The notes: generated by a model from the sequence alone, not told the origin. 64,000 bases of DNA from Caldora sp. (GCA_965222765.1 CBDCVG010000043.1:97053-161052); one strand, 5' to 3'; shown: positions 25,118-52,637, counted from the stretch's first letter. Made by a program: numbers and translations.

Positions 25118-25560
25118 TGTATTTGCTCGACACCAACCACTGTAGCCGTATCATCTTCGGCGAACCTACCTTGATGCAGCAGCTACAACTTCACACAGAA
25201 GCAGGTGTTGCCACCAGTACCATCGTCTGTGGAGAGCTCTTTTACATGGCAGCTAAATCTGAACGAAGAGCCGCGAACCTCCAGCAAGTCAGAGCTTTTA
25301 TAGACACAATCGCCTTATACCCCATTAATCTCCCCATTTCTGAAATTTACGGCTCCCTCAAAGGAAAACTGATTGCTGCTTTTGGTCCCAAAAATAAAAT
25401 ACAGCGACGAAACTTCAACCCACAAAACCTTGGTTTTGGAGACAATGATCTCTGGATTGCAGCTACAGCAATATACAACAAACTTACAGTTGTTTCTGCC
25501 GACAATGATTTTCAGCGCATTCAACAGGTGGAACCTTTGGTATTAGAATCTTGGATTTGA
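25117..25560 (+). CDS. vapC: PIN-domain toxin VapC
   Basis: LLDTNHC N-terminal acidic motif, NDLWIAATAI and VVSADNDF PIN motifs; 147 aa. Confidence 0.8.
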   Translation: MYLLDTNHCSRIIFGEPTLMQQLQLHTEAGVATSTIVCGELFYMAAKSERRAANLQQVRAFIDTIALYPINLPISEIYGSLKGKLIAAFGPKNKIQRRNFNPQNLGFGDNDLWIAATAIYNKLTVVSADNDFQRIQQVEPLVLESWI

Positions 25561-30842: not shown

Positions 30843-31397
30843 CTATTTGTCAAGACCTTGATAGAGCTGAGCGATCACAAATTCCAGATCAATACTTTTT
30901 AGTGAAACAAGATCGCCTCTCTCGTAAACAACCGTCTCCCAGGTATTCACCGAGGTGCGACGGCGACATTCTACCCGCTGATTTTCTTGAGAAATTAAAA
31001 CATATTCTTCCAAAGATGCTATTTTTTGATAATCCTTAAATTTTTCCTCTAAATCAAAGGTCTTTGTACTAGGTGAAAGTACTTCAACAATCAGTTTAGG
31101 GTATCTCTTGATGTAGCGGTCATTGCGGTCTCGTGGGTCACAAGTAACGAAGGCATCTGGATAGTAATAAAATTCATTTTGGTAATTAACCTTCACATTA
31201 CCCGAGTGAAATCGGCAATCTGAGTTGCCTAAATGCAAGTTAATCAAGCTGAGAAGGTTTAGAGCAAGACGATCATGATTATCTGTGCCACCAGCCATCG
31301 CATAGACTAAGCCGTGCCAATATTCATGGCGGATCTGGCTTTGGCGTTCGATGTCGAGATACTCTTCAGGAGTGATGTAATTACGGATGGCAATCAT
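30843..31397 (-). CDS. Uma2-family endonuclease (DUF820)
   Basis: EYxxGxL...D...PDLAIEV-type PD-(D/E)xK pattern (YPKLIVEVLSPST). Confidence 0.75.
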   Translation of the reverse strand: MIAIRNYITPEEYLDIERQSQIRHEYWHGLVYAMAGGTDNHDRLALNLLSLINLHLGNSDCRFHSGNVKVNYQNEFYYYPDAFVTCDPRDRNDRYIKRYPKLIVEVLSPSTKTFDLEEKFKDYQKIASLEEYVLISQENQRVECRRRTSVNTWETVVYERGDLVSLKSIDLEFVIAQLYQGLDK

Positions 31398-31480: not shown

Positions 31481-32080
31481 TCACATCAGGCGTAAAGTTT
31501 CTCGAAATGCTATCACTGCATCAAACTGCTCTTCAGGTTTAACATAGCTAGCTAGCAACTTGAGGTCTAATGCCGATAGTAACTCACTAGCTTCTACTAA
31601 CTCATATCCGGTTGAGCGCAGATGATAAATAGAAAATTGTCCTGATTGCCACTGCCAAACTTCGCGTACTCCCAAACCCCGATAGATATCCAACTTATTG
31701 ACCAATCCACTAGTGATGACCACCTCGATCGCTAAGTCGGGGAATTCCTTTTTTGCTCCTAAACAATAGCACTCATCAGGTTCTAAGCCTCGCTTCTTGG
31801 CAGCTTGGCGAAATGTGGTGGAACCCCCTGCATGGAAACGAGTTCGCGTTTCTTGTAGATAGGCTTCTATCAACATCCCAATCACCTTTTTGAGCTCCTC
31901 GTGTTCTGGAGAATTAGTCATGATTTCTAGAGTTCCCTCTAAGTAGCTCATTCGCAATGTCGGAAAGTTATCTCCTAGAACATCTAGCAAACTCTCATAC
32001 TGATGCCAATCAACTCCATGAAGTAGCACCCGTTGCTCTGAATCTACCAATGGAGGTTGAGTGACGATTGGAGAATTCAT
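31481..32080 (-). CDS. Uma2-family endonuclease (DUF820)
   Basis: LEGTLEIMTNSPEHE ... FPDLAIEVVITS motifs. Confidence 0.75.
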   Translation of the reverse strand: MNSPIVTQPPLVDSEQRVLLHGVDWHQYESLLDVLGDNFPTLRMSYLEGTLEIMTNSPEHEELKKVIGMLIEAYLQETRTRFHAGGSTTFRQAAKKRGLEPDECYCLGAKKEFPDLAIEVVITSGLVNKLDIYRGLGVREVWQWQSGQFSIYHLRSTGYELVEASELLSALDLKLLASYVKPEEQFDAVIAFRETLRLM

Positions 32081-32248: not shown

Positions 32249-32788
32249 CTAGCCATTTTCTGGTTCGACGTAGCCTTGTATATTCTCAAGATTGAATTGC
32301 TTCAGTAGAGTTGTGGCTTGCCTAGTCAAACTTTCAGAACCTTTGACCACAATCAAGTATTTTCCAGCATTGAGGCGATTACGGTAAGACAAAGCATCAC
32401 CACTACCAACGCTTAAACCGACGCCACCACCAACAAAAAAGCTACCCATTGACCCTGCGATCGCACCGAAGAAACCGCCGATGATGTGATTAACTACTGC
32501 ACCTGTTCCTGGAAGAATTTCTATTCCTGTTTGCAAGTTAAACACATAACCCGCTCCGAAACCAAAGGGAATCAACAAGAATGCCAGCTGATAAATTTGC
32601 TTTTTCGCTTTAGTGGTGGGGTCTATTAAGCCAAATTCATCAGCACTTTGGTATCCTCTACCCAGAATAGTGACCTTATCCATCGGTAAGCCTGCTTTTT
32701 CTAGGGCAGTATAGGCTGCTTCTGCCTCAATGCGGTTTGGCAATATGGCAATCAAATAGTTCATTGCTTGGATCTTGGTTCGATACAA
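32249..32788 (-). CDS. Membrane protein with a glycine-zipper segment (DUF1269-like)
   Basis: GGFFGAIAGSMGSFFVGGGVGLSVGSG glycine-zipper transmembrane region. Confidence 0.5.
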   Translation of the reverse strand: MYRTKIQAMNYLIAILPNRIEAEAAYTALEKAGLPMDKVTILGRGYQSADEFGLIDPTTKAKKQIYQLAFLLIPFGFGAGYVFNLQTGIEILPGTGAVVNHIIGGFFGAIAGSMGSFFVGGGVGLSVGSGDALSYRNRLNAGKYLIVVKGSESLTRQATTLLKQFNLENIQGYVEPENG

Positions 32789-33136
32789 GACTTACTTTAC
32801 CCGTTTATCTTTACAAGAGAGACTTTGAAGGCAAGGAATAAGGTTTGGAGAGAGGATTAAATCCTGTTCTTCTCCCACTCCAAGAGTTCCTGTTGCTTTT
32901 TACCTTTTCATGATGGGGAGAAACCTAAAAATTTTCAGACAACTGAGGCACTAGTGACCCTTTGCAGTTAATATAGCCTACTGCGGTGAGAACTCACTGT
33001 TGTTTTCACTCTACTCCCACTGCATTCAGCAGCTGACTGCTATTTGTTGTCTGTCGCTTGCAGCGCTCCTTGCCTTGAAATTCCTTTAAGGTAGAGGAGC
33101 GGGATTAGGACAAGCTCATTTCAACCCCATTAGGTA

Positions 33137-34720
33137 ATGTCTAAGGTTCTCGTCTCTGACCCAATTAATCAAGCTGGAATTGATATCCTTTCCCAAGTTG
33201 CTCAGGTTGACATCAAAACAAATCTACCGCCTGAGGAACTAGCTGGGATTATCTCAGAATATGATGCCTTGATGATTCGCTCTGGGACTCGCGTTACCCA
33301 AGAGATTATTGAGGCTGGCAATCAACTGAAGATCATTGGACGTGCTGGTGTTGGTGTAGATAACGTCGATGTTGCAGCAGCTACCCGTCACGGAATTGTT
33401 GTAGTTAACTCTCCAGAAGGGAATACAATTGCCGCAGCTGAACACGCCCTTGCGATGATGCTGTCTCTTTCTCGCCATATTCCCCATGCTAATGAGTCAG
33501 TTAAAAACAATAAGTGGGACCGCAAGCGCTTCATCGGTACAGAAGTTTATAAGAAGACTTTGGGTGTTGTTGGCTTGGGCAAAATTGGCTCCCATGTGGC
33601 TACTGCAGCACGAGCTATGGGTATGAAGTTACTCGCCTATGACCCCTTCATTTCCATCGAACGAGCTGAGCAGCTAGGCTGCCGCTTAGTTGAGATGGAT
33701 TTACTGTTGCGGGAGTCTGATTACATTACTCTACACATTCCTAAAACTGCGGAAACGGCTCATCTAATTGATGCTGAAGCCTTAGCCAAGATGAAGCCAG
33801 GAGCCCGCATTGTCAACTGTGCTAGAGGTGGCATTATTGATGAAGAGGCGCTAGCCGAGGCTTTAAAGGAAGGTAAAATTGCCGGTGCAGCTTTGGATGT
33901 CTTTGAATCAGAACCCCTAGGAGAATCACAATTGCGATCGCTGGGGAAAGAAGTTATACTGACTCCCCACCTAGGAGCCTCTACCGAAGAAGCTCAAGTT
34001 AATGTGGCGATTGATGTTGCTGAGCAAATTCGTGATGTTTTGTTAGGCTTACCAGCCCGTTCAGCAGTTAATATTCCTGGCCTTTCTCCCAACGTACTCG
34101 AAACTCTCAAACCCTATATGAAGTTGGCAGAAACCCTGGGTAATTTAGTCAGTCAGCTGGCGGGAGGACGGATTGAAGTTTTGAATGTGCGGTTACAGGG
34201 AGAGTTAGCGACTAATAATAGTCAGCCTTTAGTTGTAGCTTCCCTTAAAGGTTTACTTTCCCATGCCCTGCGGGAGCGAGTTAATTATGTTAATGCCACC
34301 ATTGAAGCTAAAGAACGGGGAATTCGTGTCATTGAAACCCGAGATGCTTCAATTAAGGACTATTCAGGAGGCTCATTACAGTTATCAGCTAAGGGTTCTT
34401 TGGGAGAACATTCTGTGACTGGAGCTTTGCTCAGTGATGGAGAAATCCATGTTACCAGTATTGATGAGTTCCCAATTAACGTTCCTCCTAGTAATCACAT
34501 GCTCTTTACTCTGCACCGCGATATGCCGGGAATTATTGGGAAAATTGGCTCTCTGCTAGGCAGTTTTAATGTCAATATTGCCAGTATGCAGGTTGGTCGC
34601 AAAATTGTGCGGGGTGATGCAGTTATGGTACTGAGTATTGATGATCCTCTACCGGAGGGAATTTTGAAGGAGATTATGAAAGTTCCTGGAATTCGGGATG
34701 CTTATACGGTAACTTTGTAG
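33137..34720 (+). CDS. serA: D-3-phosphoglycerate dehydrogenase with C-terminal ACT domain
   Basis: NAD-binding GVVGLGKIGSHVA. Catalytic R/E/H region (NCARGGIID, TPHLGAST). 527 aa including ASB/ACT domains. Confidence 0.9.
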   Translation: MSKVLVSDPINQAGIDILSQVAQVDIKTNLPPEELAGIISEYDALMIRSGTRVTQEIIEAGNQLKIIGRAGVGVDNVDVAAATRHGIVVVNSPEGNTIAAAEHALAMMLSLSRHIPHANESVKNNKWDRKRFIGTEVYKKTLGVVGLGKIGSHVATAARAMGMKLLAYDPFISIERAEQLGCRLVEMDLLLRESDYITLHIPKTAETAHLIDAEALAKMKPGARIVNCARGGIIDEEALAEALKEGKIAGAALDVFESEPLGESQLRSLGKEVILTPHLGASTEEAQVNVAIDVAEQIRDVLLGLPARSAVNIPGLSPNVLETLKPYMKLAETLGNLVSQLAGGRIEVLNVRLQGELATNNSQPLVVASLKGLLSHALRERVNYVNATIEAKERGIRVIETRDASIKDYSGGSLQLSAKGSLGEHSVTGALLSDGEIHVTSIDEFPINVPPSNHMLFTLHRDMPGIIGKIGSLLGSFNVNIASMQVGRKIVRGDAVMVLSIDDPLPEGILKEIMKVPGIRDAYTVTL

Positions 34721-34860
34721 GGGCGTGGCGAAGTTAGATATTTCGCCGATAGTGCCAAATGTTAATCAAGCCTTGACCTTCAAGGAACTAGGAGTCAGTA
34801 GTCACGAGAAATTCAGCAATTGCTGAATTTCTGGATTTCAAAGTCAGCAATTCTGGAATT

Positions 34861-35751
34861 ATGGCAAACAGCTGGTGGGAAATTAAAATTCTCTGTGACT
34901 CTGCTTTGGAGGATTTAATCTTCTGGCGACTGGAAAAATTTGGTTGTCGTGGTATGTCCAGCGAAGTCAAGGGAAATTCCCACCTTTTGTGTAGTTATCT
35001 ACCTCAGATAGAGGCACAACTATTGGATTTAGCGGCTCTTTCCCTATGGCTGCGTCAGGATGCCCTCACTCTGGGACAGCCAATACCGATGATGCATTGG
35101 CGTTTGATTGATGAGGAGGACTGGGCTAGTAATTGGAAGCAGCACTGGCAACCACAGGATATTGGCGATAAATTGTTGATCTACCCTGCCTGGTTGCCGG
35201 AGCCAAAACTCTCTGAACGTCTGCTATTACGCCTTGATCCTGGAGCTGCATTTGGTACTGGTACTCACTCGACTACTCAGCTTTGCCTAGAAGCTTTGGA
35301 AATGCGATTAGGAGATGGCAGTAATGGTGTAGTGGCTGATATTGGTTGTGGCTCTGGTATTCTCTCTATTGGAGCTGTATTGCTAGGTGCGAAAAAGGTC
35401 TATGGGGTTGATATTGACCCCTTGGCCGTGCGTTCTGCCCGCAGTAACCGTGACTTGAATCAAATTAGTGCTCAGCAAATGGTTGTGGAAAGAGGCAGTA
35501 TTGACAAGTTACAGAAGCTAACTAACAATCAATTAGTAGATGGAATTCTCTGCAATATTCTGGCAGAAGTAATTATCGATTTAATTCCAAACATGAGTGC
35601 CCTTGCTGGTCCTAAAACTTGGGGTATTCTTAGTGGAATTTTGTTAGATCAGGCTAAATCAATTGCTGATATCCTGGAACAATATAACTGGATTGTGGCA
35701 GCCCTCTGGAAGCGTCAAGAATGGTGTTGCTTTAATATTAGAAGATCTTAG
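34861..35751 (+). CDS. prmA: Ribosomal protein L11 methyltransferase
   Basis: SAM-binding motif [15 protein letters not shown]; 296 aa. Confidence 0.85.
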
Positions 35752-35921
35752 TAATTTCCCAATACAAAAATCCTCACTTAAGGTGATTTCCAAGAAACAA
35801 TGTACCTATCGTAGGGTTTGTTAGCGAAGCGTAAGGCACCGCATTGCGGGTACAATCATTATCAAAAATCGCCTAATTTCTAACTAGAGGTCAAGCCTAA
35901 AAAGCTTTAAGCTTAGTTCCT

Positions 35922-37121
35922 ATGCGAACAGTTGCTCAAATCAATGATAAAATCCTCCGCCGTTGTGCAGTGGTATGGACTGTAGAAGAATTAAAAGCAC
36001 GAGTGGCAGATGTAGGTGTGACTCAGGCGGCGAAACAAGTGGATATCATTACCACCGGTACCTTTGAGCCAATGGAGTCTTCCGGTGCAATTATCAATCT
36101 GGGACATACAGATCCACCTATCAAAATTCGTCAGTGTTGGCTGGATAGAGTGCCAGCCTACCCTGGCTTTGGGGCAGTGGATTTGTATTTAGGGGCAACT
36201 CAAGTGGTAGATTACACCGGTACTGGTGACATTCCAGACTCAGAGGAATTAAGAGAACGTGGTGGCGGACACATCATTGAAGACTTAATTGCCGGTAAAA
36301 CAATACAATTGCGAGCCCTTGGATATGTAACAGACTGCTATCCCAGGGCGTCTTTTGAGACAACAATTACTCGCGATACAATTAACCAGTTTTATTTATT
36401 TAATCCCCGCAATCTTTATCAAAACTTTATTGTTGGTGTTAATGGGGGAGATCGTCCCCTATTCACTTATTTAGGTCCCCTACAGCCGAGGCTTGCCAAT
36501 GCAGTTTACTCCAACCCAGGAGAAATTTCTCCCCTACTCAATGATCCAGAACTCAAGCTCATTGGGATTGGCACAAAGATTTTCCTAGGTGGAGGCATTG
36601 GTTACATTGCTTGGGAAGGAACCCAACATTTCCCCTTGCAAAAACGCCTTCCTAATCGAACACCAGTAGGACCGGCAGCCACTCTTGCCTTAATTGGAGA
36701 TGCTAAGCAAATGAACCCTAAGTGGGTGAGGGGTTGCTACTTCAAAAATTATGGTCCTTCTCTGATGCTGGGTGTTGGTGTGCCACTACCAGTCTTAAAT
36801 GAAGAAGTTGTCAAATGCTGTGCTGTCGAAGATAAAGACATTGTCGCACCAGTTGTGGACTTTTCTATTCCCCGACGTGTCCGTCCTACTTTCGGTTTAG
36901 TGAGCTATGCTCAATTAAAGTCTGGTCGTATGACGATTGATGGCAAATCAGTACGGGTAGCTCCCCTGGCTAGTATTTTTCTCTCACGACAAGTAGCTTG
37001 GGACTTGAAGGAATGGATTGAGCAAGGGGAATTTACCCTTACTGAACCAGTCGCGCCAATTCCGATGAATAGCTCGTTTCTTCCTCAAGACCGATGGGAT
37101 TCTCAAATTGCCCTAGATTAA
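35922..37121 (+). CDS. DUF39-family protein (homocysteine biosynthesis protein, MJ0100-like, without CBS domains)
   Basis: The 399-aa sequence resembles the DUF39 proteins annotated in cyanobacteria; this is a recall-based call. Confidence 0.55.
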   Translation: MRTVAQINDKILRRCAVVWTVEELKARVADVGVTQAAKQVDIITTGTFEPMESSGAIINLGHTDPPIKIRQCWLDRVPAYPGFGAVDLYLGATQVVDYTGTGDIPDSEELRERGGGHIIEDLIAGKTIQLRALGYVTDCYPRASFETTITRDTINQFYLFNPRNLYQNFIVGVNGGDRPLFTYLGPLQPRLANAVYSNPGEISPLLNDPELKLIGIGTKIFLGGGIGYIAWEGTQHFPLQKRLPNRTPVGPAATLALIGDAKQMNPKWVRGCYFKNYGPSLMLGVGVPLPVLNEEVVKCCAVEDKDIVAPVVDFSIPRRVRPTFGLVSYAQLKSGRMTIDGKSVRVAPLASIFLSRQVAWDLKEWIEQGEFTLTEPVAPIPMNSSFLPQDRWDSQIALD

Positions 37122-37251
37122 TTTAGGTTTTAGGTTTTAGGTTGAGAAAAAACAGTAAGTTTGAGTTATTTTCCTGTAAATACTCTTGATGAAGGATAAT
37201 AACTTTGCCAATAACTCAAAAATCTCATTACCTAACACCTAACACCTTTTC

Positions 37252-38235
37252 TTAAGTACTACCTCCACGCTGCTTTTGGCTATGCTTAATCGGTTTAGGT
37301 AAAGGTTCTCGGCGTTTAGTTGGCGTCACTGCTACTGGGCGATCACCTGAACTAAAGGAGCGCTTATTGGAAGTTTTCTTGTTTTTATAGGAATGCTTTT
37401 TACCGGAAGTTTTTTTGCCTGGTCTTTTTTTTCTGAGAGGCATCATACCAATGTCATTGGCTTCCTTAATTAACAGAGTATTCCCCTGCAACTGCACATG
37501 TAAATCCCAAAAGCGACCCAGTACTTTCTCTCCTAGAATCCCTTTGAGATTGATCTTAAAAAACTTAGGTGATTCTGACTCTTTACGAGGAGATTGCCTA
37601 ATCTTGATGACTACTCGTTCCTGTTCTTTTGAGTGGTAGATTACCTCACCACGAATAGAAAAATAGCCATTTTTAAAAACGGGTGAAACTTCAGCTTGAG
37701 AAACTTCTTCAGAGCTTTTTACTTCTGATTCCTCAGAAACTTGTTCAGACTCAGCAGATCTGGTTGATGTTGTTTTATTAAGTTTTTCTGGCTCCCAAAC
37801 ACCGACAATTTGGACGTGTAAGTTATTGTCTTCTTGCCTGGATCGAGGATAAACAACCCAAAGATGGGGTTGTGCTAAGTCCAAGTGATTTTTGACTAAG
37901 CTCATCACCCTACCTAGTAACACAGCATCAATTAGGGTTCCATCTGTTGTTACTAAAGTACCTCGAGTCAATTGCTCTGCCGAGGGCATATATTGTCCCT
38001 TGATTAGCCCGATAGCTCGGTACTGCTTGGGTTCACTCGGGGGAGGAATTGGTTGTTCTCGCTGAACGTTTGGTGGCATAGTCCCGGTTGAATCAGCTGT
38101 AGCAGTTGAGTTAGTGACGTTTGGAGAATCGCCAACTGGCGTTTCTGGGGGTTGGTTTGATATTGTTGGTGTTTCTGGCGACTGAACTCCAGAAGCATTG
38201 GGTGATTCGGTAGACAGATTCACAGAAAGATTCAT
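37252..38235 (-). CDS. Hypothetical protein with a Pro/Ser/Thr-rich N-terminus and Lys/Arg-rich C-terminus
   Basis: ORF track; low-complexity termini around a central globular region. Confidence 0.5.
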   Translation of the reverse strand: MNLSVNLSTESPNASGVQSPETPTISNQPPETPVGDSPNVTNSTATADSTGTMPPNVQREQPIPPPSEPKQYRAIGLIKGQYMPSAEQLTRGTLVTTDGTLIDAVLLGRVMSLVKNHLDLAQPHLWVVYPRSRQEDNNLHVQIVGVWEPEKLNKTTSTRSAESEQVSEESEVKSSEEVSQAEVSPVFKNGYFSIRGEVIYHSKEQERVVIKIRQSPRKESESPKFFKINLKGILGEKVLGRFWDLHVQLQGNTLLIKEANDIGMMPLRKKRPGKKTSGKKHSYKNKKTSNKRSFSSGDRPVAVTPTKRREPLPKPIKHSQKQRGGST

Positions 38236-38612
38236 ATAACCTCTAACCTCCTAGCGGCGGAGACACATTACCCGTTATGGGGGTTCGGCTGACTTGACTA
38301 AGAGTCTTTTGCTCAACACTATCTAGCTGTTGGTTGTTTCAGAAACAATGACTTGAGGTTGAACAACCAAAAAACTCCTAGGTGAGAAAACTTAATTATC
38401 AGCCTGCCTATTGTATAAAATGCAATGGGATGATCGGTATATCCGTAAAGTTTATGGAATCTTTAATGGTAGAACCTTATAACTATACTAACTCTAGGCT
38501 GAATTTTGCCCAGATTCTGGTGGGTTTGAGGTTCAGGGCAGGGTAGAATAAAAAATCCTCGCTGTCTCAGCACGAGGAGTGTCAAAATGTAATTAGAGTT
38601 CAAGGAAGTTTT

Positions 38613-39515
38613 GTGTCTCAAAAGCGCAGTCCCTGGTTAAATCTGGTATTGATATTGGCGGTGCTGGCATTTGTCGGTTTTTCAATGATTCCTTTGATTG
38701 GAAGTATCTTCGAGGGAAATGAACCGACAGCAGGAGCCTCACCAGCCGCAACACCAACAATTTCTTCAGAACAGCAGGCAAAACTCGAAGCTGAGGCGAA
38801 GGGCTATGAATTAGTTGTGCAGAGGGAGCCAAACAATACCACAGCACTGCGAGGGCTGGTAGAGGCAAGGTTGCGGCTTGGAGATATTAAAGGAGTGATC
38901 TCGCCCCTAGAACAGTTGGCAAAGCTAAATCCTGACCAGACTGATTATGTTATATTGCTGGCTCAGGCTAAGCAGCAAGTTGGCGATCGCGAAGGAGCAG
39001 CTCAAGCCTATCGTGATGTACTAGCCTCGGAACAGGGAAACATGAATGCCTTGCAAGGGCTTGTCAGTCTATTAGTACAGCAAGGTCGCCCAGAAGCAGC
39101 AATTGGCGAGTTGCAAAAGAAGCTAAAAACAGCAGCATCTATTAATGAGTTTCAGCCCAATACGATCGATATCGTTGGCGTACAGATGTTGTTAGGTCAA
39201 GTTTACGCTAGCCAAAAGCGCTACACAGAAGCGCTCACAGTCTATGATGAGGCTATTAAGTCTAACGAAGAAGCTTGGAGACCAGTTCTAGCTAAAGCAT
39301 TGATTTTTAAACAACAGGGTAAAACGGCAGAAGCAGAACCCCTCTTCACAAAAGCCATTTCTCTAGCACCAGCTCAACACAAAGACCAAATTCAACAGTT
39401 AGCAAGTCCATCAGAGCAACCAGAGCCTAATAGTTCACCTACCAATGAGACTACCAATGAGACTACCAATGAGACTCCTGAACTGCCAGAGTCGATCCCA
39501 ACAGTGAGTCCTTAA
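38613..39515 (+). CDS. TPR-repeat protein with an N-terminal membrane anchor; C-terminal TNETTNETTNET repeat
   Basis: TM helix LNLVLILAVLAFVGF followed by TPRs. A 12-nt tandem repeat at 39433-39470. Confidence 0.7.
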   Translation: MSQKRSPWLNLVLILAVLAFVGFSMIPLIGSIFEGNEPTAGASPAATPTISSEQQAKLEAEAKGYELVVQREPNNTTALRGLVEARLRLGDIKGVISPLEQLAKLNPDQTDYVILLAQAKQQVGDREGAAQAYRDVLASEQGNMNALQGLVSLLVQQGRPEAAIGELQKKLKTAASINEFQPNTIDIVGVQMLLGQVYASQKRYTEALTVYDEAIKSNEEAWRPVLAKALIFKQQGKTAEAEPLFTKAISLAPAQHKDQIQQLASPSEQPEPNSSPTNETTNETTNETPELPESIPTVSP

Positions 39516-39585
39516 ACAGAGCTCAGGACTTACGCAAAACCTCCATTTGTAGGGTGTGTTAGCGTAGCGTAACGCACCTTTGAAT

Positions 39586-41481
39586 CTATTGCTCCCCAAC
39601 TTTCCTTCTCAATTCAAGTGCTTTCAGATCAAGAGATTCTGCTTTATCGTACCTACCCTGTAACTTGTAGATATGTGCTAGATGATTGACGCTGGTAGCT
39701 ACATGGGGATGATCATTCCCTAGACGAGTTTTTGTCGCTAAATAACACTGTTCATACCAGTTAACTGTTTGCTCATAATCTCCTTGTCCCTGATAAAAAC
39801 GAGCTAAACCAACAAAAGGAAAGATTAAATCTTCATCATTTAACCAGTCGCTTTGAGCTGTTGCTGCTTCCGCTAAGTGAGGAATAGCGGGAGTGAGTTC
39901 TGTAATTTGTCTTTGAGTTGGAGTCTCTGGAATTTTTTGTGCCTCTGCCACCATAACTTGACAAAACACTAGCTTCAATTGGTTTGCTTCGATTAATTGC
40001 TCCAGCTTACCTCGGAAAAATTCTCGAATTAGCGGGTGTAGTTGATAGTTACCTTGACTATACCTCTGTAGTAGACTCAAATTTATTAAAGACTGATCTC
40101 TAGCATCTTCTACATCTTCCTTGTCTTGCTCCGGTAAGCACTTTTCCACTAATTCCCAAGGAATAGGGGCTAAAGCAAACAGACTCAACAAGCATCCTAA
40201 TTGTTGTTCTGACTCATCTAGTTCTTGCCAACTCAACTCCAAAGCATCAGCAACCCCCAACCTCGCTGTCATATCTTCAGAAGGTTGCTGTAATGAGCGG
40301 TGCTCTAGCTCCAATCGCTGACGCATTTCAGCTAGAGACAAATCTGACTTGCTCTTCAAATATCGCCCAACCAGCTCCAAACCTAAGGGTAAAAATCCCA
40401 ATTCCTCACAAAGCTCTTTTGCTTGATCAAGTTCCTTTGTAATACGCTCTTGTCCCACAAATGATACCAATAATTCCAAAGAGGCGTTCTTCGACAGACC
40501 CTCTAAGTTGATTTGCACAAAAGACTCACCCAATAATTGCTTTCTGGTGGTGAAGAGTATCTTGAAGCGTGGCTCGGCTGGTGGCAGATAGGGCTTGACT
40601 TGTAGATAGTCTCTCACATCATCCCAGATCAACAACACCTCACCCTCTTGCCAATTTCGCCAACAGTAAGCCACCTGCTCTTCCAAATTGCACTCGGATG
40701 GCGGCTGTAAGTTAAACTGAATTTTGGCAAAACTCAGGATTTGAGTTCCCAATTCACCCTTTCCCGCCTCTAACCAGCAGATGCCACCGGGGTAAGTACC
40801 TTGCTCTTGATCTAACAGGGCATATTGCAGAGCCAGTTCTGTTTTCCCAACACCCCCCATTCCAGTAATAGCAGAAATAGCGACTCGTTCTGTCTGTTGT
40901 AATTGTTGGTGTAGGGTTTCAATAGCTTCAGTGTGTCCAACAAACTTAATCGCGCCGCTGCGGGGTAGGTTTGAAGGGATACTGGCAGTTTGAACAGCAG
41001 TTACTTCATCTAATTCATCTGGGTTATTTTGATCAACTAAAGCTGTTGCAAAAGTAACCTCTTTTTGTAGTGCTTTTGATCTTGTTGATCGTCGGCGTTC
41101 CCACTCTTGATCAAACCGTTCCAAATTCTTGGTTTTGTCTTTTGACCATAGGGTTAGGGTAAAATTCCAGTCATCTGAACCCCGCTTCTGTGCCCGATTA
41201 TCTTCCAAAATCCCCAGAAAGTCTTCCATCCGATGAAGAGCTTCTCGGATTTGAGCTTTGGTAAGCTTACCTAGATATTGATCATTTTGGGTCAGTTCTG
41301 CTAAAACTCTGAGCTTAGTGTTGACATGTAGCTTGGGATTAGTCGAGTTTTCAGAATTCCAACGGTATTGGATATCAAGATGCTCATAACCCTCCAACTC
41401 AACATTCACAAACGCCAGCAATGCTTCAAGCACGCAAAGAACTCTCTTTTTTACTCGAGATCCATAGGTGGCTCTTGGCAT
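39586..41481 (-). CDS. STAND NTPase: uncharacterised N-terminal ~170-aa domain, NB-ARC P-loop NTPase, C-terminal TPRs
   Basis: Walker A GMGGVGKT in an NB-ARC context (hhhhDDV, GLPLGL motifs). C-terminal kinesin-light-chain-type TPRs. Confidence 0.8.
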   Translation of the reverse strand: MPRATYGSRVKKRVLCVLEALLAFVNVELEGYEHLDIQYRWNSENSTNPKLHVNTKLRVLAELTQNDQYLGKLTKAQIREALHRMEDFLGILEDNRAQKRGSDDWNFTLTLWSKDKTKNLERFDQEWERRRSTRSKALQKEVTFATALVDQNNPDELDEVTAVQTASIPSNLPRSGAIKFVGHTEAIETLHQQLQQTERVAISAITGMGGVGKTELALQYALLDQEQGTYPGGICWLEAGKGELGTQILSFAKIQFNLQPPSECNLEEQVAYCWRNWQEGEVLLIWDDVRDYLQVKPYLPPAEPRFKILFTTRKQLLGESFVQINLEGLSKNASLELLVSFVGQERITKELDQAKELCEELGFLPLGLELVGRYLKSKSDLSLAEMRQRLELEHRSLQQPSEDMTARLGVADALELSWQELDESEQQLGCLLSLFALAPIPWELVEKCLPEQDKEDVEDARDQSLINLSLLQRYSQGNYQLHPLIREFFRGKLEQLIEANQLKLVFCQVMVAEAQKIPETPTQRQITELTPAIPHLAEAATAQSDWLNDEDLIFPFVGLARFYQGQGDYEQTVNWYEQCYLATKTRLGNDHPHVATSVNHLAHIYKLQGRYDKAESLDLKALELRRKVGEQ

Positions 41482-41510
41482 ATGTCTAAGCAGGAGATTC
41501 GCTCAAAAAG

Positions 41511-41617
41511 TTTGGGGAAACCCCAAACTATATACTACCCTAAAATATCTTAAAATCTTGATTATGCAGGTTTTTACCTACCAAAATTTAACAATTGATT
41601 TGGGGTACTACCCCAAA
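41511..41617. promoter_or_regulatory. Two similar palindromes (tttggggaaaccccaaa at 41511-41527; tttggggtactaccccaaa at 41598-41617) just upstream of the STAND gene start; candidate operator pair
   Basis: Read directly from the sequence. Each is followed by a similar ctatata / gttatag tail. Confidence 0.3.
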
Positions 41618-41701
41618 GTTATAGTTGCAGAGATGTGATGGTAAGGCATTAACTAGTGTGATTTAGGAATGTGATTTTTAAGGCATGATATTGCTAAACG
41701 C

Positions 41702-41733
41702 AAAAAAGGCGAGGTGTCAGCTCGCCTAAATTT
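41702..41733 (-). terminator. Rho-independent terminator for the minus-strand small gene (ggcgagctgacacctcgcc then T7 on the minus strand)
   Basis: GC hairpin followed by ttttttt when read on the minus strand. Confidence 0.55.
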
Positions 41734-41777
41734 ACAATATTCCCTAGATATTTAGGAGTGCTTCAGACTCCTTAAAT

Positions 41778-41996
41778 CTAGCTATTGTCTTTTTCATCCT
41801 CTTTGTCGTTTTGCTTTGTTGGCCGCTTTTTCTTTTGCTGAGGACTTTCGTCAATACCATTAAGCAGTTTGGCGATCGCCGGGGGTATCACATCTGCTCC
41901 GGGTTGAGGTTGGTTATCTTGATTGATAACACCAACCATAAATCCCCAGCAAAGTATAGAAGCAGCTACTAAGCGTGCAAAATTGAACAAGCTCAT
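41778..41996 (-). CDS. Small single-TM membrane protein (72 aa) with a Lys/Asp/Glu-rich tail
   Basis: ORF plus a downstream intrinsic terminator. Confidence 0.4.
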   Translation of the reverse strand: MSLFNFARLVAASILCWGFMVGVINQDNQPQPGADVIPPAIAKLLNGIDESPQQKKKRPTKQNDKEDEKDNS

Positions 41997-42918
41997 TGAC
42001 TATTTCTCCATTATCAGGATTATTAGAGTTCCCTGACGCAGGTCGTTAATGATCGAAGTCAGTGAGCGCAGGAGGTGTCTAGTAGCCCCCAGAGCATAGC
42101 TAGGCACATACACCTGCTTTGCTCTATCGAAGTTTAACACCTTTTGTATTAGGTTGCAACTCTCATTCTTGGTTCAAAACACAATGGGGCAATAATTTCA
42201 AGCAATTTTTGCAATCTTTGAAAATCTTTTGCTTACCTGTGTTCCTTGCACCTCAATTATGGGTTTAAGTAGGTGAGTATAGAATAAATCCGCATGGGTA
42301 GTTATCTTTGGCAAAACAAGATTAAACACTGACTATATCAAGGCTTCAGTTTAGGTGTAGGTTGGGTTGACCGAACGGATACTATTGGCGAAATCGCTCG
42401 AAGGGTTGTAGGGGTGTATTGCATACACCCAATCTAATGGATTGAGATACCGATAGATGCTGAATTGGGCAAATGCAATTTGCCCCTACAATTTACAAAA
42501 TGTTTCGCCAACAGCATCAGGAAAGAAACCCAATATCCAAGCACATTTGTGTTGGGTTATTTCCGCCGCGCTGCACTAGTGATACCTTGGAAAATGCGAT
42601 CGCCCAAGCTTATGCAGCAATGGATTGCATTCAATTTAAGGAAAGATTAAATCTTCATCATTTAACCAGTCGCTATTTTGACCAAAATCTCAAGGGAAAT
42701 CACCAAAAGCGAAACCCAACGCTAATTCTCTCGGTGTTGGGTTTCGCTACGCTGCACCCAACCCAATACTGCTCGGTTAAGAGAAAGTTTCGGTAAAGAT
42801 GAGCTGGGGGAGCTGGGGGAGCTGGGGGAGAAGAATTGGGGCTTATCCGAGCAGTATTGGCACCCAACCTACAATAGCTACAGCTGACAGCTGAAAAATA
42901 TTGTTTCTTTACAACCTG

Positions 42919-44397
42919 TCAGCTCTCACTCAGTACCCAATTTACTAGAGTACGGACTGGGTAACCAGTAGCACCGCTATTATTGCACCCATTTTCCTTA
43001 TCTGACCAAACTGTACCAGCAATATCTAGATGAGCCCAAGGAGTCTCCTTCACAAACTGCTTCAAAAATAAAGCAGCTGTAATCGAACCTCCTGCACGGG
43101 GCCCAGTGTTTTTCATATCAGCTATTGGTGACTTCATACCCTCAAAGTACTTCTCTTCTAGTGGCATCTGCCATAATTTTTCCCCAGCTGCTTCTGAAGC
43201 TGCTTTAAGCTGAGTAGCTAGAGTATCATCTGTTGACCACATGCCGCCAATATTATTACCTAAGGCAATAACACAGGCGCCAGTCAAGGTTGCTAAATCA
43301 ATGATCGCATCTAGCTCTAATTTTTCGGCAAACACTAGAGCATCGGCAAGAGTTAGTCGTCCTTCTGCATCAGTATTATTAACTTCAATCGTCTTACCAT
43401 TAGAGGCGGTGAGGATATCTCCTGGGTGCAAAGCACGTCCACTAATCATGTTTTCTGTAGCCGCACTGATGAAGTGAACCTCTACATCAGGCTTTAGTTG
43501 CGCAATGGCTTTGGCAGCTCCAAAAGTAGCTGCTGCACCTCCCATATCGATTTTCATTGTCTCGATGCCACTACCAGCACCTTTGATATTCAAACCCCCG
43601 GAATCGAAAGTAAGACCTTTACCCACGATCGCTAATTTGCGCCGGGGTGTATCCTTGGGTTTATAGGTCAGATGAATAAACTTAGGCGGCAAATCAGAGG
43701 CTTGAGCAACCCCCAGAAAAGAACCCATACCGAGTTTTTCACAATCTTCCTTTTCCAAGATTTCTAGGGAAAGACCGTATTCTGAGGCAATCTTTTCTGC
43801 TGTTTGAGCTAAACTAATCGGTGTTACCGCATTAGCTGGTGCTGCAACCAATTCCCTGGCTAGAATCACTCCATCACAGATTTGTTGAGCTTTGGTGATT
43901 GCCGTTTCCTGATTTTCCAATCCCAGTAAATCTACTTGTTCGAGCTTGGCTCCTTTATCTTCCGGATCTGACTTAAAGCGATTATCCAGGTGCAATGCCA
44001 GCAGTAAGCCTTCTGTAATCACCTGAGCTGTTGCCCTTGGATCATCATTAACTACAGGTAAGCTAATAGCTAGAGTTTTGCTCTTCTCTCGTTTCGCCAA
44101 CCGACCGATCGCAGCGGTAGCACGACGTAAGCTATCTAAACTTAGGGTATCTGCTTTCCCTAGCCCCACCAGCATAATTTTGCGGATGGAGCTACCTGCA
44201 CCTACGCGGGTTACAGCTGAGCTACCAACGCTTCCCTTAAATTCCGTTTCTTCAATCAATTCCTTGAGAACACCGGCAAACTTCTCATCTAATTGGGCTA
44301 AATCACCAGTCAGTTCTACTGCATCTTCAAAAAAACTAACTGCCAAAGCATCGCCAGTCCAGTCCAACCGTGGTGTATCCGTTGCTCGAATTTCCAT
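42919..44397 (-). CDS. pepA: Leucyl aminopeptidase (M17)
   Basis: NTDAEGRL signature and metal-binding context; 492 aa. Confidence 0.9.
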
Positions 44398-44824
44398 CCT
44401 TAGTTTGATCTACCTAAAATACGATTATGTGAAGTACCCAAAACTGATGCTACGCATACAGCGTGAGCTTCTTGTCTCATCCGCCAATGCCGCCATACCA
44501 AAGTATTTTGGTTTTATTCAGTAGGTTGTTGATTTCTTACTAGGATACCAGGAGCACGAAAGTCCTATGGGTTTAGCCGAGAGATAAAAGTTGGTCTAGT
44601 CAGCAACTTTTCGCTCACAGGGTGACAAGCAATAGGTTCGTAAATACTTCGTAATATAAAAAAATTCTTCTTTTTGTAGTGCGTAATGTCGGATACTATA
44701 CTCCTAATTTAGGAGTTACAGCACTTTGCAGCTTAATGAGGTACATCTTACTTCTGCCTCCTGCCTTCAAGCGACAAATTCTGTACTTCACTTAGTTCAA
44801 AAATTGATAAAAACCGCTGTAAAT

Positions 44825-46432
44825 ATGTACACCACATCTCAGCCAGACCCCGTCCGCTTAGAAATATTCAAAAACCTCTATCAATTCATTGCTGAACAAA
44901 TGGGGATTGTCCTCCAAAATACAGCAGCATCAGTAAATATCAAAGAACGCTTAGATTTCTCCTGTGCAATTTTTGATGCCTCTGGATTATTAGTTGCCAA
45001 TGCTCCCCATATTCCTGTTCATTTAGGTTCAATGAGTGAAAGTGTATGCAGTTTAATTAATGACAAAGGAGATACAATAAAACCAGGAAATGTCTATCTC
45101 TCCAACAATCCCTATAACGGAGGAACCCATCTTCCTGATGTAACAGCAATTACCCCTGTATTTTGGACAAGTGGTAACTATTCTCAATCCCCAATTCTCA
45201 ATCCCCAATTCTCAATTCCCAATTCTCAATTCCCGATTCCCCTCTTTTTTGTTGCTTCTCGCGGACACCAAGCTGATATCGGTGGCATTACTCCTGGTTC
45301 CATGCCCCCAAATAGTACTACGGTAGAAGAAGAAGGCATTATTTTCGATAATTTTCTCCTGGTTGAGGAAGGGCATTTTCAGGAAATCCCCCTACGGCAG
45401 GTACTTCTAAATCATTCCTATCCTGCCCGTAACCCAAACCAAAATATAGCTGATTTCAAGGCACAAATTGCCGCCAATGAAATGGGGGTGCAAGAACTCA
45501 ATAAAATGGTGTCACAATATGGATTGGAAACAGTTCATGCTTATATGAAATTTGTTCAAGACAATGCAGAGGAATCAGTCAGAAGGGCAATTGATGTGCT
45601 TCGAGATGGAGAGTTTAGCTATGAAATGGATAATGGTGCACATATTCAACTCAAAGTAACCATTGACAAACAAAATCGCACTGCCACCATTGATTTTACT
45701 GGAACATCCGAGCAACTAAATAGTAACTTCAATGCTCCCAAAGCTGTCACTCAAGCTGCAGTTTTATACGTCTTTCGCACTTTGGTGGATGATAATATTC
45801 CCCTCAATGCTGGGTGTCTTAATCCTCTAGAAATTATTATCCCTTCTGGCTGTATGCTCAACCCTACCTATCCAGCAGCAGTGGTAGCAGGTAATGTCGA
45901 GACTTCTCAAACCATCGTCGATGCCTTATATGGAGCCTTAGGGGTGATGGCAGCTTCTCAGGGAACGATGAATAACTTTACCTTCGGGAATGACTGTTAT
46001 CAATATTATGAAACTATCTGCGGGGGTTCTGGAGCAGGAGCTAACTTTGATGGCACTGATGCTGTGCATACCCACATGACTAACTCCCGCTTGACTGATC
46101 CAGAAGTTTTAGAAACTCGCTATCCTGTACAAGTCGAAAGCTTTAATCTTCGTCCTGATAGTGGGGGCAAAGGAAAATATGCAGGTGGTAATGGAGTGAT
46201 TCGCCGCATCAGATTTTTAGAACCGATGACAGCTAATATTCTCTCTAATCATCGCCTGGTTCCTCCCTTTGGCTTAAATAGTGGCGAAGCTGGGTTAGTT
46301 GGATACAACTGGATACAACGTTACACTGGAACCCAAGAAAATTTAGATAGTACTGCAACTGTAGAGATGCAACCTGGAGATGTTTTTGTTATTGAAACTC
46401 CTGGGGGAGGAGGATTTGGTAAAGTTTTGTAA
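44825..46432 (+). CDS. Hydantoinase B / oxoprolinase-family protein (ORF track start 44726; probable start MYTTSQ at 44825); contains an in-frame STRR insertion
   Basis: HyuB-type core. Heptamer-like repeats at 45181-45240 encode SQSPILNPQFSIPNSQFPIP. Confidence 0.75.
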   Translation: MYTTSQPDPVRLEIFKNLYQFIAEQMGIVLQNTAASVNIKERLDFSCAIFDASGLLVANAPHIPVHLGSMSESVCSLINDKGDTIKPGNVYLSNNPYNGGTHLPDVTAITPVFWTSGNYSQSPILNPQFSIPNSQFPIPLFFVASRGHQADIGGITPGSMPPNSTTVEEEGIIFDNFLLVEEGHFQEIPLRQVLLNHSYPARNPNQNIADFKAQIAANEMGVQELNKMVSQYGLETVHAYMKFVQDNAEESVRRAIDVLRDGEFSYEMDNGAHIQLKVTIDKQNRTATIDFTGTSEQLNSNFNAPKAVTQAAVLYVFRTLVDDNIPLNAGCLNPLEIIIPSGCMLNPTYPAAVVAGNVETSQTIVDALYGALGVMAASQGTMNNFTFGNDCYQYYETICGGSGAGANFDGTDAVHTHMTNSRLTDPEVLETRYPVQVESFNLRPDSGGKGKYAGGNGVIRRIRFLEPMTANILSNHRLVPPFGLNSGEAGLVGYNWIQRYTGTQENLDSTATVEMQPGDVFVIETPGGGGFGKVL

Positions 46433-51344: not shown

Positions 51345-52637
51345 CTAACGAGGTATAGCGGGTGATTCCCAAGAGTTCTTGGTTCGCAGTTCATCGAGCC
51401 GACTTAGAACCAGAGCGTTTCCGTTCTTGAGCCAGAGGTCAGTTTCTCCCTGCGCTTTCGAGCTTTTGGCTCCGGATTCTGTATGCCCTACAGTACCGTT
51501 TAAATATTCAGCTAATAACAATAATCCTTTTTTCAAGATGTTTTTGGCTGCATTATGGTCGCGGTCTAATACCGTTTTACAATTACTGCATTTATGTGTT
51601 CTGGTGCTAAGTGTTTTCTTCACCTTCGCCTTACAATATGAGCAATCAACAGTTGTATTGTGAGGCACTACAGCAATAACTATCACACCATACACTTTGG
51701 CAAAGTATTGAAGCCATTTGGTGAATCGATACCAAGATGCATCGCTGATGGATTTAGCTAGCTGGTGATTTTTTACCATGTTTTGTATCTTCAAGTCCTC
51801 GTAGACAATTAAATCTTTCGACTTAACTAGCGCCAAAGCATCTTTACGAGCTTTGTCTTCACGCTGTCTACTTACCTTCAGATGTTGCTTCGCTAAAGCC
51901 TTGCGTGCCTTGTGGTATCTGTTAGACTGTTTCTTCTTTTCAACATGTTTCTTAGAAACCCGACGTTGAAGCATCTTTAATCTTCGTTCGGATTTCCTCA
52001 AATATCGAGGGTTGTCAACAGTATTTCCATCGGAATCGGTATAGAACTCTTTTAGTCCTAAATCAATTCCCGTCATTTTCCCTTGAAATTCATGCTTCTC
52101 TCGTCTATCCCAATCCACTAAGAACTGAGCATAGTAGCCGTCAGCACGTCTTATGACTCGAACTCTTCGGATTTGTTTTTCCCTGGTCCAAACTAAATCC
52201 CTAGAACTCCACAAATCCATCATTCCGACTTGAAAACCATCAGTGAAAGTTATAGTCCTTCTCTCAGCAGACAATTTCCAGCCTGAATTTTTGTACTCGA
52301 GGGAACGACTGAATTTTTTGTAGCGAGGATAGCCTTTTTTACCGGTTTTTCCTAATCTACAGTTTTCATAAAAACGCTGAATGGCAGACCATGCCCTATC
52401 AGCGTGAGCCTGCCTTGCTTGGGAGTTAAGTTTTTTCGCCCAAGGGGCAAGTTTGTCCTTAGCTAGTAGGGCGCAAAGCTTTTGGAGGTCGTTACGAGTG
52501 ACCCGTCTGTTATCTTCCCAATAGCGCAAACAGGTGTTGCGGATGAACTGCCCTGTTCGGATTGCTTCATCCAACTTGCTGTACTGAACTTTGGTTCCTT
52601 TGAGCTTGGCTTCAATTACTAGCATGAGACCAAGCAT
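51345..52637 (-). CDS. tnpB: TnpB (IS605 OrfB family RNA-guided endonuclease), intact
   Basis: RuvC-I TGIDLGLKEF, RuvC-II YEDLKIQNM, zinc finger CSYCKAKV...CSNCKTV, RuvC-III DRDHNAAKNI; 430 aa. Confidence 0.9.
   Translation of the reverse strand: MLGLMLVIEAKLKGTKVQYSKLDEAIRTGQFIRNTCLRYWEDNRRVTRNDLQKLCALLAKDKLAPWAKKLNSQARQAHADRAWSAIQRFYENCRLGKTGKKGYPRYKKFSRSLEYKNSGWKLSAERRTITFTDGFQVGMMDLWSSRDLVWTREKQIRRVRVIRRADGYYAQFLVDWDRREKHEFQGKMTGIDLGLKEFYTDSDGNTVDNPRYLRKSERRLKMLQRRVSKKHVEKKKQSNRYHKARKALAKQHLKVSRQREDKARKDALALVKSKDLIVYEDLKIQNMVKNHQLAKSISDASWYRFTKWLQYFAKVYGVIVIAVVPHNTTVDCSYCKAKVKKTLSTRTHKCSNCKTVLDRDHNAAKNILKKGLLLLAEYLNGTVGHTESGAKSSKAQGETDLWLKNGNALVLSRLDELRTKNSWESPAIPR

Follow-up and report, generated by a model that had tools for sequence, protein, structure and literature searches.

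The stretch of DNA analyzed here (the window, 64,000 nt from Caldora sp., GCA_965222765.1, CBDCVG010000043.1:97053-161052) carries on its minus strand a gene for a STAND NTPase of the NB-ARC-TPR type. A conserved noncoding module lies in front of the gene, and a 37-nt direct repeat, one copy of which is inside the coding region, bounds a segment that is missing in a close relative. The gene and the domains of its product are as follows.

39586 to 41481, minus strand: EAD4-NB-ARC-TPR STAND NTPase gene, 631 aa (from the list of open reading frames [ORFs], Pfam domains, and colinearity with homologs)
41095 to 41463, minus strand: EAD4 (effector-associated domain 4), residues 7 to 129; Pfam PF19959, predicted to be winged-helix-like alpha+beta
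40288 to 40929, minus strand: NB-ARC ATPase module, residues 185 to 398; PF00931, E = 7.7e-19, 68.4 bits against a cutoff of 23.5
39592 to 39810, minus strand: truncated TPR sensor array of about two TPR_12 units, residues 558 to 630; Pfam TPR_10/TPR_12

The start codon, ATG, lies at 41479-41481. A preliminary description of this DNA had recognized a STAND NB-ARC-TPR NTPase of the kind found in conflict systems, and the Pfam matches to NB-ARC (68 bits) and to TPR_10/TPR_12 bear this out. Read in translation, the NB-ARC motifs are intact, with Walker A as GMGGVGKT (residue 207) and Walker B as LLIWDDV, and they extend to a GLPL-like FLPLGLELVG and an MHD-like LHPL (within LHPLIREF); with the Pfam threshold passed and the Walker A, Walker B, and GLPL/MHD motifs all present, the module belongs to the NB-ARC class. 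Residues 1 to 170 had been described as matching no recognized domain, but a profile search identifies EAD4 within them (E = 1.2e-39, 136.1 bits against a cutoff of 27, with the whole profile covered). In the parts of their work that deal with effector-associated domains (EADs), which are the parts cited throughout, Kaur et al. define EAD4 as a small nonenzymatic adaptor (PMC7159879) and describe EADs as occurring in one copy on a core NTPase and in other copies on effector or signaling proteins, with homotypic coupling proposed between them; EAD4 itself was found fused to effectors and to TRADD-N (PMC7159879, PMC8195603). The fusion of EAD4 to a core NTPase, by which membership is recognized there, is what the window gene encodes. 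The position ahead of NB-ARC had been expected to hold the effector; it is indeed a variable effector or adaptor position, but here it is occupied by the EAD4 adaptor. The window gene is therefore a further member of the known EAD4-STAND conflict NTPases, which are abundant in filamentous cyanobacteria. Among multicellular bacteria, Kaur et al. count the EAD4-NB-ARC-TPR family as one of the NTP-dependent systems of conflict and programmed death (PMC7159879).

Homologs of the window protein number 2,673, mostly from Nostoc, Symploca, Moorena, and Coleofasciculus, and the top match is 62% identical. EAD4 is present in 35 of the 120 best homologs. Tabulating the N-terminal domains of homologous NB-ARC-TPR proteins, a check that the preliminary description had called for, showed that the content of the slot is exchanged, with CHAT, caspase, TIR, transglutaminase-like, EAD10, or Xre-type helix-turn-helix (HTH) domains, or nothing at all, in the other close homologs.

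The structure of EAD4 was predicted in two AlphaFold2 models, based on alignments of 10 and 43 rows. Their mean predicted local distance difference test scores were 71.8 and 76.8, with most of the core at 84 to 93, and both gave the topology H-E-E-H-H-E-E-H. We regard the fold as winged-helix-like with moderate confidence. The defining paper words the EAD4 fold as "mixed alpha+beta" (PMC7159879), and a winged-helix-like fold is not described in the EAD parts of PMC7159879 and PMC8195603. In structural comparisons of the models, Z was below 8 throughout and Foldseek E values were above 0.02, and a profile search of EAD4 against Protein Data Bank sequences gave no match. The domain is charge balanced (pI 5.4 to 9.5 over 35 members, namely the window domain and 34 homologs), and its best-conserved block, I-L-E-D-N-R, includes two acidic residues. 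With such a fold, EAD4 might bind protein, DNA, or RNA.

The window protein is colinear with its homologs P0001 and P0002 over residues 1 to 623. The ORF then breaks off in the middle of a repeat (...ALELRRKVGEQ*), at a point where the aligned relatives read ...ALELRKRLLGEEHPDVA... After the P-loop the window protein has 424 residues, compared to 499 to 961 in the 119 of 120 homologs with an identifiable P-loop, an excess of 75 to 537 residues, and its TPR array is the shortest among 121 relatives. The premature stop is common to the window and to contig L001 of Symploca sp. SIO2C1, so the truncation predates the split between the two. Directly 3' of this stop, at 39549-39578, lies a dispersed repeat, GGTGCGTTACGCTACGCTAACACACC, which also occurs at 7575-7604 of L001 and which may mark the event that shortened the array.

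Conserved module upstream of EAD4 genes

The noncoding DNA in front of the gene contains the following features, with distances counted from the ATG.

41497 to 41625, minus strand: conserved noncoding promoter/leader module, about 130 nt; nhmmer E = 6.8e-16, 53.6 bits
41599 to 41617, no strand assigned: distal palindrome TTTGGGGTACTACCCCAAA (sense strand TTTGGGGTAGTACCCCAAA), about −136 to −118; covariance-model match at E = 0.22
41561 to 41566, minus strand: −10-like hexamer CATAAT (TAnAAT in relatives), a conserved alignment block at about −85 to −80
41502 to 41530, minus strand: leader hairpin GTTTGGGG-TTT-CCCCAAAC followed by TTTTT (the same site as the proximal palindrome), ending 26 nt before the ATG

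Two operator-like palindromes had been reported 30 and about 120 bp upstream of the start codon, and both sites were confirmed and are conserved in evolution. The proximal one, TTTGGGGAAACCCCAAA, is at 41511-41527, 30 nt upstream of the ATG. The pattern TTTGGGG-N(1-8)-CCCCAAA is matched in the 64 kb only by these two palindromes (0.00 matches expected by chance). The palindromes are absent upstream of the closest homologs. The relatives compared were one Nostoc locus, 14 metagenome loci traced through an alignment of EAD4 proteins, and three more obtained by look-up; the metagenome loci include near-duplicates (L091/L092/L100 and L094/L095). In front of more distant EAD4 genes, TTGGGG/CCCCAA hexamers recur at about −130, −105, −60, −41, and −32. 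Over 15 EAD4 loci, 36% of such hexamers fall within the 200 nt before the ATG, a region that makes up 3.6% of the sequence.

The module was detected with an nhmmer profile built on 12 EAD4 genes from other loci (155 nt upstream of each), the window being left out of the profile; in 1.22 Mb of control loci the best hit of the same profile had an E value of 1.3. Its organization is a distal box, CTTTGGGGT(A)GTA(CCCCAAA)GCAA, then the −10-like TAnAAT, then the leader hairpin, a T-rich run, and a ribosome-binding site. The 5' half of the distal box, CTTTGGGGT, and the GCAA are the parts conserved in relatives. An octamer, TTTGGGGT, is repeated, being present in the leader as well as upstream of the −10-like box. 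The module stands in front of EAD4 genes of Symploca, Nostoc, and other filamentous cyanobacteria, and the ATPases encoded downstream of it include the NB-ARC-TPR type of the window, another NB-ARC type, NACHT-like ATPases, and others. Since the ATPases differ, the module travels with the EAD4-coding 5' end and not with the ATPase. No such module is described in the EAD parts of PMC7159879 and PMC8195603 or in Rfam, and a literature search for the octamer returned nothing relevant, only primer sequences.

Across relatives, GTTTGGGGT(R)G pairs with (CYA)CCCCAAAC around a loop of 3 to 24 nt. This hairpin folds in all 15 of 15 leaders (−8 to −21 kcal/mol), and its distance to the ATG ranges among loci from 25 to 360 nt. 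RNAalifold gave no structure for the plain MAFFT alignment of the leaders, in which the 3' arms were misaligned, and a trimmed alignment with a covariance model was used instead. The model (R1) was built from a 12-sequence alignment in which 91% of pair cells are paired; the window was outside the seed. Beyond the seed, R1 matched upstream of EAD4 genes in the window (E = 0.012), in loci L102, L087, L084, and L081, and at the second gene of L105, whereas the best match in 65 control loci had an E value of 0.92. Among 19 sense hairpins, double-sided compensatory changes affect 3 of 8 core pairs (T:A to G:C, G:C to A:T, and G:C to T:A). Rfam 15 has no relevant match at E ≤ 1 in positions 38000 to 45000 of the window or in five related loci. 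Like terminators and attenuators in bacterial 5' untranslated regions, the leader places a G/C-cored hairpin with a T-run between a −10-like box and the start codon and shows compensatory pairing. It differs from such attenuators in its conserved stem sequence, in extra 5'-arm octamers upstream, in offering no evident antiterminator alternative, and in its variable distance to the ATG.

The shape of the palindromes raises the question of whether they could be binding sites for HetR, which would link EAD4 conflict genes to cell-differentiation signaling. HetR requires GGG-N5-CCC, as in the hetP site GAGGGGTCTAACCCCTC (PMC4192349). Both the distal GGGG-TAGTA-CCCC and the proximal GGG-GTTTC-CCC fit GGGnnnnnCCC, the core GGGGT-N3-ACCCC is identical to that of the hetP site, and the module is found in filamentous cyanobacteria. 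However, GGG-N5-CCC is kept in only about half of the related distal boxes, the conserved TTT/AAA flanks are unlike those of HetR sites, and leader hairpins with loops of 17 to 24 nt could not be dimer sites; the likeness may merely reflect what any G4/C4 palindromes have in common. From these sequence comparisons, we judge a role of HetR to be highly improbable.

The 37-nt repeat and the 2,785-bp segment

The coordinates of the repeat and of the segment that it bounds are given below.

39816 to 39852, no strand assigned: 37-nt direct repeat, copy A, in the gene; encodes SDWLNDEDLIFPF at the junction of the NB-ARC helical region and the TPR array
42638 to 42674, no strand assigned: 37-nt direct repeat, copy B, with flanks unrelated to the family; 1,157 nt upstream of the start codon
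39853 to 42637, no strand assigned: segment of 2,785 bp missing in L001 (blastn and three-way junction alignment)

The repeat had been noticed before. It is exact, and the string then quoted is the correct 37-mer, but its length is 37 nt and not 39, and the copies had been placed at 39823-39861 and 42635-42673. The window contains only these two matches even with three mismatches allowed (0 expected). Because the 37-mer encodes SDWLNDEDLIFPF, a conserved motif located exactly at the start of the TPR array, copy A is native to the gene.

The window is about 96% identical at the DNA level to L001 of Symploca sp. SIO2C1. In blastn, window positions 32259-39852 correspond to 11157-3573 of L001, and 42638-42768 correspond to 3609-3477. 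The junction in L001 consists of the left flank of copy A, a single repeat, and the right flank of copy B, with the repeat identical in all three places. The missing segment takes in the regulatory module, a 72-aa ORF, 640 nt of unknown sequence, and, from the gene itself, the 5' 1,629 nt that encode EAD4 and NB-ARC. What L001 keeps of the gene is a 267-nt 3' stub with a nonsense change (AAA to TAA) and without a start codon, an in-frame TGA lying six codons upstream. No protein on record is more than 62% identical to the missing part, in a database that included the SIO2C1 proteins. The segment was most likely lost in the SIO2C1 lineage by recombination between the repeats, and this inferred loss would make the gene dispensable and decaying in this species. 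Both deletions between short direct repeats and the excision of cyanobacterial elements resemble the present case in that a segment lies between short exact direct repeats and one copy remains at the junction. The identity profile along the alignment of the window with L001 shows no anomaly near the junction of the sort that local recombination would leave. Exact look-ups of the STAND protein, pepA, the TPR neighbor, and the homocysteine-biosynthesis protein for additional strains gave no record, and among 80 loci examined for a syntenic pepA only L001 qualified.

Cyanobacteria carry developmentally excised elements in nifD, fdxN, and hupL, which are removed by XisA, XisF, and XisC. In the same manner, the two 37-nt repeats could be attL and attR of an excisable 2.8-kb 5' cassette, with SIO2C1 as the empty site and excision reversible through a 2,822-bp circle whose junction would read ...CATTCAATTT-repeat-TTGAGCTG... 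A single event would then link both genomes, and copy B would need no separate origin. The junction is clean, with identity limited to exactly 37 nt in all three junctions, and the repeat contains a weak 8-7-8 inverted repeat, GATTAAAT-CTTCATC-ATTTAACC, complementary at 7 of 8 positions. Exchange of 5' modules does occur, as the promoter-leader-EAD4 unit is joined to other ATPases elsewhere, and an EAD4-only truncation (P0124 in locus L086) has downstream genes of the same kinds as a full-length gene in L081. However, a scan of 40 window ORFs revealed neither an integrase nor a recombinase, only a TnpB at a distance of 9 kb. Apart from the window and L001, the 37-mer was not found in the loci searched (more than 84), in metagenome contigs, or in viral contigs. 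These searches thus yielded neither the recombinase nor the recurring att sites expected of an integrative or excisable element. The base composition of the segment is native, the gene reads through copy A colinearly with every homolog, and in SIO2C1 the stub, with its nonsense mutation, starts right at the repeat, as a remnant of deletion would. In contrast to the nifD, fdxN, and hupL elements, the removed segment is the gene's own 5' part and not an insertion that interrupts it; the host genus, moreover, is one that we take to be nonheterocystous. An excisable cassette is thus a decidedly weak candidate compared with plain deletion.

An error of assembly at the repeat, either a collapse that dropped the segment from L001 or a separate molecule threaded into the window, would mean that there is no biological polymorphism. 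L001 is a contig of a short-read metagenome-assembled genome, and its synteny with the window stops abruptly on both sides, at 32259 and 44587. On the other side, collapse of the repeat is unlikely, since 37 nt is below the usual final assembly k-mer; the window ORF is intact and colinear with all homologs; L001 has substitutions of its own, the nonsense codon of the stub among them; and the records for SIO2C1 contain nothing close to the missing part of the gene. We therefore hold an artifact to be very unlikely. The synteny spans only 12.3 kb, with positions 1-1765 and 11158-13431 of L001 lying beyond the breaks, and points either to heavily rearranged genomes or to one chimeric contig. Beyond one breakpoint, a disrupted ORF at 11323-12533 of L001 is, by eye, an HNH/IscB-like candidate, and the oxoprolinase of the window is replaced in L001 by an unrelated membrane protein.

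An earlier suggestion was that copy B is all that survives of a decayed paralog, as in a defense island. NB-ARC-TPR genes are multicopy in these genomes, and the intergenic region contains small mobile repeats. Nevertheless, tblastn with six full-length homologs matched only the 12 to 15 residues encoded by copy B itself, translation in three frames added nothing outside the repeat, in-frame stops occur immediately after the repeat and 6 codons before it, and identity of 37/37 would be unexpected in a fragment that had decayed past recognition. The flanks of copy B have no protein or DNA similarity to the family, and the surrounding genes are of the housekeeping kind. The repeat is the breakpoint of an insertion or deletion, and a decayed paralog is so improbable that we give it almost no weight.

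Three other origins were considered and rejected. A template/variable pair of a diversity-generating retroelement was discounted by inspection, as the repeat is exact, there are no A-specific differences, and there is no reverse transcriptase. A target-site duplication left by a transposon would be shorter than 37 nt, and the segment lacks terminal inverted repeats and a transposase. A foreign origin of the 2.8-kb segment is not indicated by any anomaly in GC content or skew or by any plasmid match.

The 64 kb contain just two copies (0.01 expected) of a hairpin motif, AAACCCAA-N17/18-TTGGGTT...CGCTGCAC, at 42526-42577 and 42712-42760, and these two hairpins flank copy B. One is in the polymorphic segment; the other is proximal to pepA and is also present in L001. 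Both are terminator-like on the minus strand, and they may have had a part in the rearrangement.

Proposed working of the EAD4-STAND gene

We consider it rather probable that the window holds a solitary EAD4-STAND ATPase whose effector is encoded elsewhere, whose expression is limited by the conserved leader, and whose 5' part was deleted in a sister lineage. By analogy with the literature, contact between two EAD4 domains would couple the ATPase to the distant effector. In the transcript, the hairpin and T-run could hold expression of a potentially toxic ATPase low, either by terminator-like attenuation or as a stem-loop to which a protein binds, and the repeated octamer TTTGGGGT could be a site for a sequence-specific factor. 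Recombination between the 37-nt repeats would have removed promoter, EAD4, and NB-ARC from the sister lineage, leaving a dead 3' stub.

Several observations weigh against this account. The 3' half of the distal box often decays, an asymmetry that points to recognition at the level of DNA over structure, and the terms leader and −10 are themselves inferred from the sequence. Covariation in the seed alignment is modest, the observed score having been reached in 21 of 500 shuffles. The T-run is imperfect in several loci, although a T-rich stretch follows the hairpin in most, and a terminator scan did not call the window hairpin. Deletion requires that a 37-mer was already present upstream, so that copy B would need an origin of its own, and the difference itself rests on two genomes, one of them represented by the metagenome-assembled contig L001. 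No EAD4 partner or effector was found in the window, where a hidden Markov model of EAD4 searched against the six-frame translation of the 64 kb matched the window gene only; the second EAD copy that the scheme of Kaur et al. expects is therefore lacking within this distance. With about two TPR units and housekeeping neighbors, the window protein may be nonfunctional, and, given also the loss in the sister genome, it may be turning into a pseudogene at this locus.

The proposed EAD4-STAND system shares with the EAD-coupled STAND systems, as described in the EAD parts of PMC7159879 and PMC8195603, an N-terminal EAD4, a STAND ATPase, C-terminal superstructure-forming repeats, and a filamentous cyanobacterial host; it differs from them in the cut TPR array and in that the 64 kb contain neither a second EAD4 gene nor an effector, vWA-MoxR, or any other partner. 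Compared with the antiviral Avs/bNACHT STAND NTPases covered by PADLOC, the order of N-terminal output domain, STAND ATPase, and C-terminal repeat sensor is the same, but the N terminus of the window protein is an adaptor and not a nuclease, protease, or TIR effector. Among the PADLOC-DB defense models, only the generic TPR model PDLC01169 matched (E = 0.0027 over 38 residues). The TPR protein of the FxSxx-COOH system (NF040586) scored 140.5 bits, below its cutoff of 300, with only the NB-ARC/TPR core matched.

The closest competing reading takes EAD4 to be a winged-helix nucleic-acid binder that, by the logic of AfsR and MalT, would autoregulate its gene through the TTTGGGGT/ACCCCAAA boxes or the leader stem-loop. 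The preliminary description had itself named a DNA-binding HTH of the AfsR/MalT type as the finding that would undo the conflict-system assignment; the sequence provides none, but with EAD4 predicted to be winged-helix-like the idea is not dismissed so simply. The likeness to AfsR/SARP and MalT-type regulators extends to the NB-ARC and TPR core, to an NCBIfam AfsR match at residues 155 to 497, to the predicted winged-helix-like N terminus, and to conserved repeated boxes in the gene's own promoter. The match to NF053617, however, scores 92 bits against a cutoff of 1430 and covers the NB-ARC part only (model positions 274 to 615), and the window protein has no Pfam match to the AfsR/SARP hallmarks, OmpR-type winged HTH, BTAD, or Trans_reg_C. 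The cis module goes with EAD4 irrespective of the ATPase class, which autoregulation would account for, but physical linkage suffices to explain that association. An Xre-type HTH occupies the same N-terminal slot in some close NB-ARC-TPR homologs, and the leader shares its octamer with the DNA upstream of the −10-like box. Yet the Z and Foldseek values given above and the absence of sequence kinship to solved structures speak against the assignment, as do the balanced charge of the domain and the two acidic residues in its best-conserved block; winged helices also serve protein-protein contacts, as in Cdt1. In P0001 and P0002, whose EAD4 domains are closest to that of the window, the hairpin arms differ (GGTTAGGG/CCCTAACC), and the fusions of EAD4 to effectors and TRADD-N reported by Kaur et al. 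suit an adaptor. On balance, we think an autoregulatory EAD4 unlikely. An extension of this idea, in which EAD4 binds its own boxes or stem-loop, promoter, leader, and EAD4 form a portable cassette swapped among ATPases, and the 37-nt repeat is the footprint of its gain or loss, seems to us similarly doubtful; if true, such self-binding would make EAD4 proteins self-regulating like the AfsR/MalT-type STAND regulators.

The window gene itself adds little to what is known of the EAD4-STAND family. The module and the winged-helix-like prediction, in contrast, concern the whole EAD4 family. We know of no description of how the expression of conflict ATPases as a class is controlled, and the 130-nt module offers a testable handle on the silencing or switching of potentially suicidal EAD4 conflict ATPases. 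Given its predicted fold, an "effector-associated" domain may prove to bind nucleic acid, which can be tested. The 2.8-kb presence/absence difference at the 37-nt repeat shows that 5' modules are lost or gained, probably within one species.

Related EAD4 loci and the neighborhood of the gene

Some metagenome loci have arrangements unlike that of the solitary window gene. L105 contains two divergent EAD4 genes 2.5 kb apart (2-421, minus strand, and 3001-6000, plus strand), each with an upstream hairpin. In L106/L107, a gene at 649-1881 encoding TRADD-like_N with pentapeptide repeats precedes, at a distance of 1.1 kb, an EAD4 gene that has a TPR array. The arrangements in L105 and L106 fit the pairing principle of Kaur et al. 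A standalone EAD4 partner was sought among P0121 to P0129 and was not accepted, as these are mostly short products, several of them on short contigs, and may be fragments; P0128 is part of the frameshifted P0014 gene. P0124 (L086, 8001-8690) is an EAD4-only product of 229 aa followed by a small ORF and a ParA/CbiA-family gene, and genes of these two kinds also follow P0002 (L081, 8001-10442), a full EAD4-NB-ARC-TPR protein of 813 aa. P0124 may thus be a second example of truncation in EAD4-NB-ARC-TPR genes. The context of L081 and L086 is plasmid-like, with a second ParA-family gene in L081 and an integrase and DUF3854 in L086.

The window gene has on one side serA, prmA, a homocysteine-biosynthesis enzyme, an unknown 327-aa protein, and a TPR protein, and on the other pepA, oxoprolinase B, a phosphoketolase-like enzyme, and a response regulator-PP2C protein. 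With such housekeeping neighbors, the locus is not the defense island that had been suggested. The 1.4 kb up to pepA (41482-42918) had been called noncoding, which is true of only part of it, as it includes a plausible ORF and a 96-nt insert resembling a miniature inverted-repeat transposable element (MITE).

41778 to 41996, minus strand: 72-aa ORF with a GGAG Shine-Dalgarno sequence and an N-terminal hydrophobic helix, inside the polymorphic segment

The ORF is followed by an intrinsic terminator at 41727-41707. It has no Pfam match and is unrelated to the small ORFs upstream of homologs; these are also mutually unrelated, and a conserved small partner ORF upstream of EAD4 genes was rejected on that ground. 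The MITE-like insert (42764-42859) has terminal inverted repeats of 18 to 19 nt, CAATACTGCTCGGTTAAG...CTTATCCGAGCAGTATTG, and three tandem GGGGAGCTG units, and it is flanked by a 10-bp duplication, GCACCCAACC (42754-42763 and 42860-42869). L001, which is without the insert, has GCACCCAACC only once. The Xenococcaceae locus L028 contains a 22-nt match to one end of the insert (42764-42785).

The TPR gene adjoining the STAND gene ends in three tandem 12-nt units, CTACCAATGAGA (39439-39476), which encode a TNETTNETTNET tail. Repeat proteins of the WD40 and leucine-rich repeat (LRR) classes are often linked to STAND systems in cyanobacteria, and the window encodes one of each, a 651-aa protein (3769-5724, plus strand) that matches WD40 over most of its length and a 283-aa LRR protein (12942-13793, plus strand). 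The TnpB gene, with OrfB_IS605 and Cas12f-like TNB domains, is at 51345-52637 on the minus strand. Three putative endonucleases of the Uma2 family are encoded at 30843-31397, 31481-32080, and 60535-61260, a PIN-domain protein at 25117-25560, and a 510-aa fusion of a phage lysozyme with a C39-like peptidase at 57277-58809.

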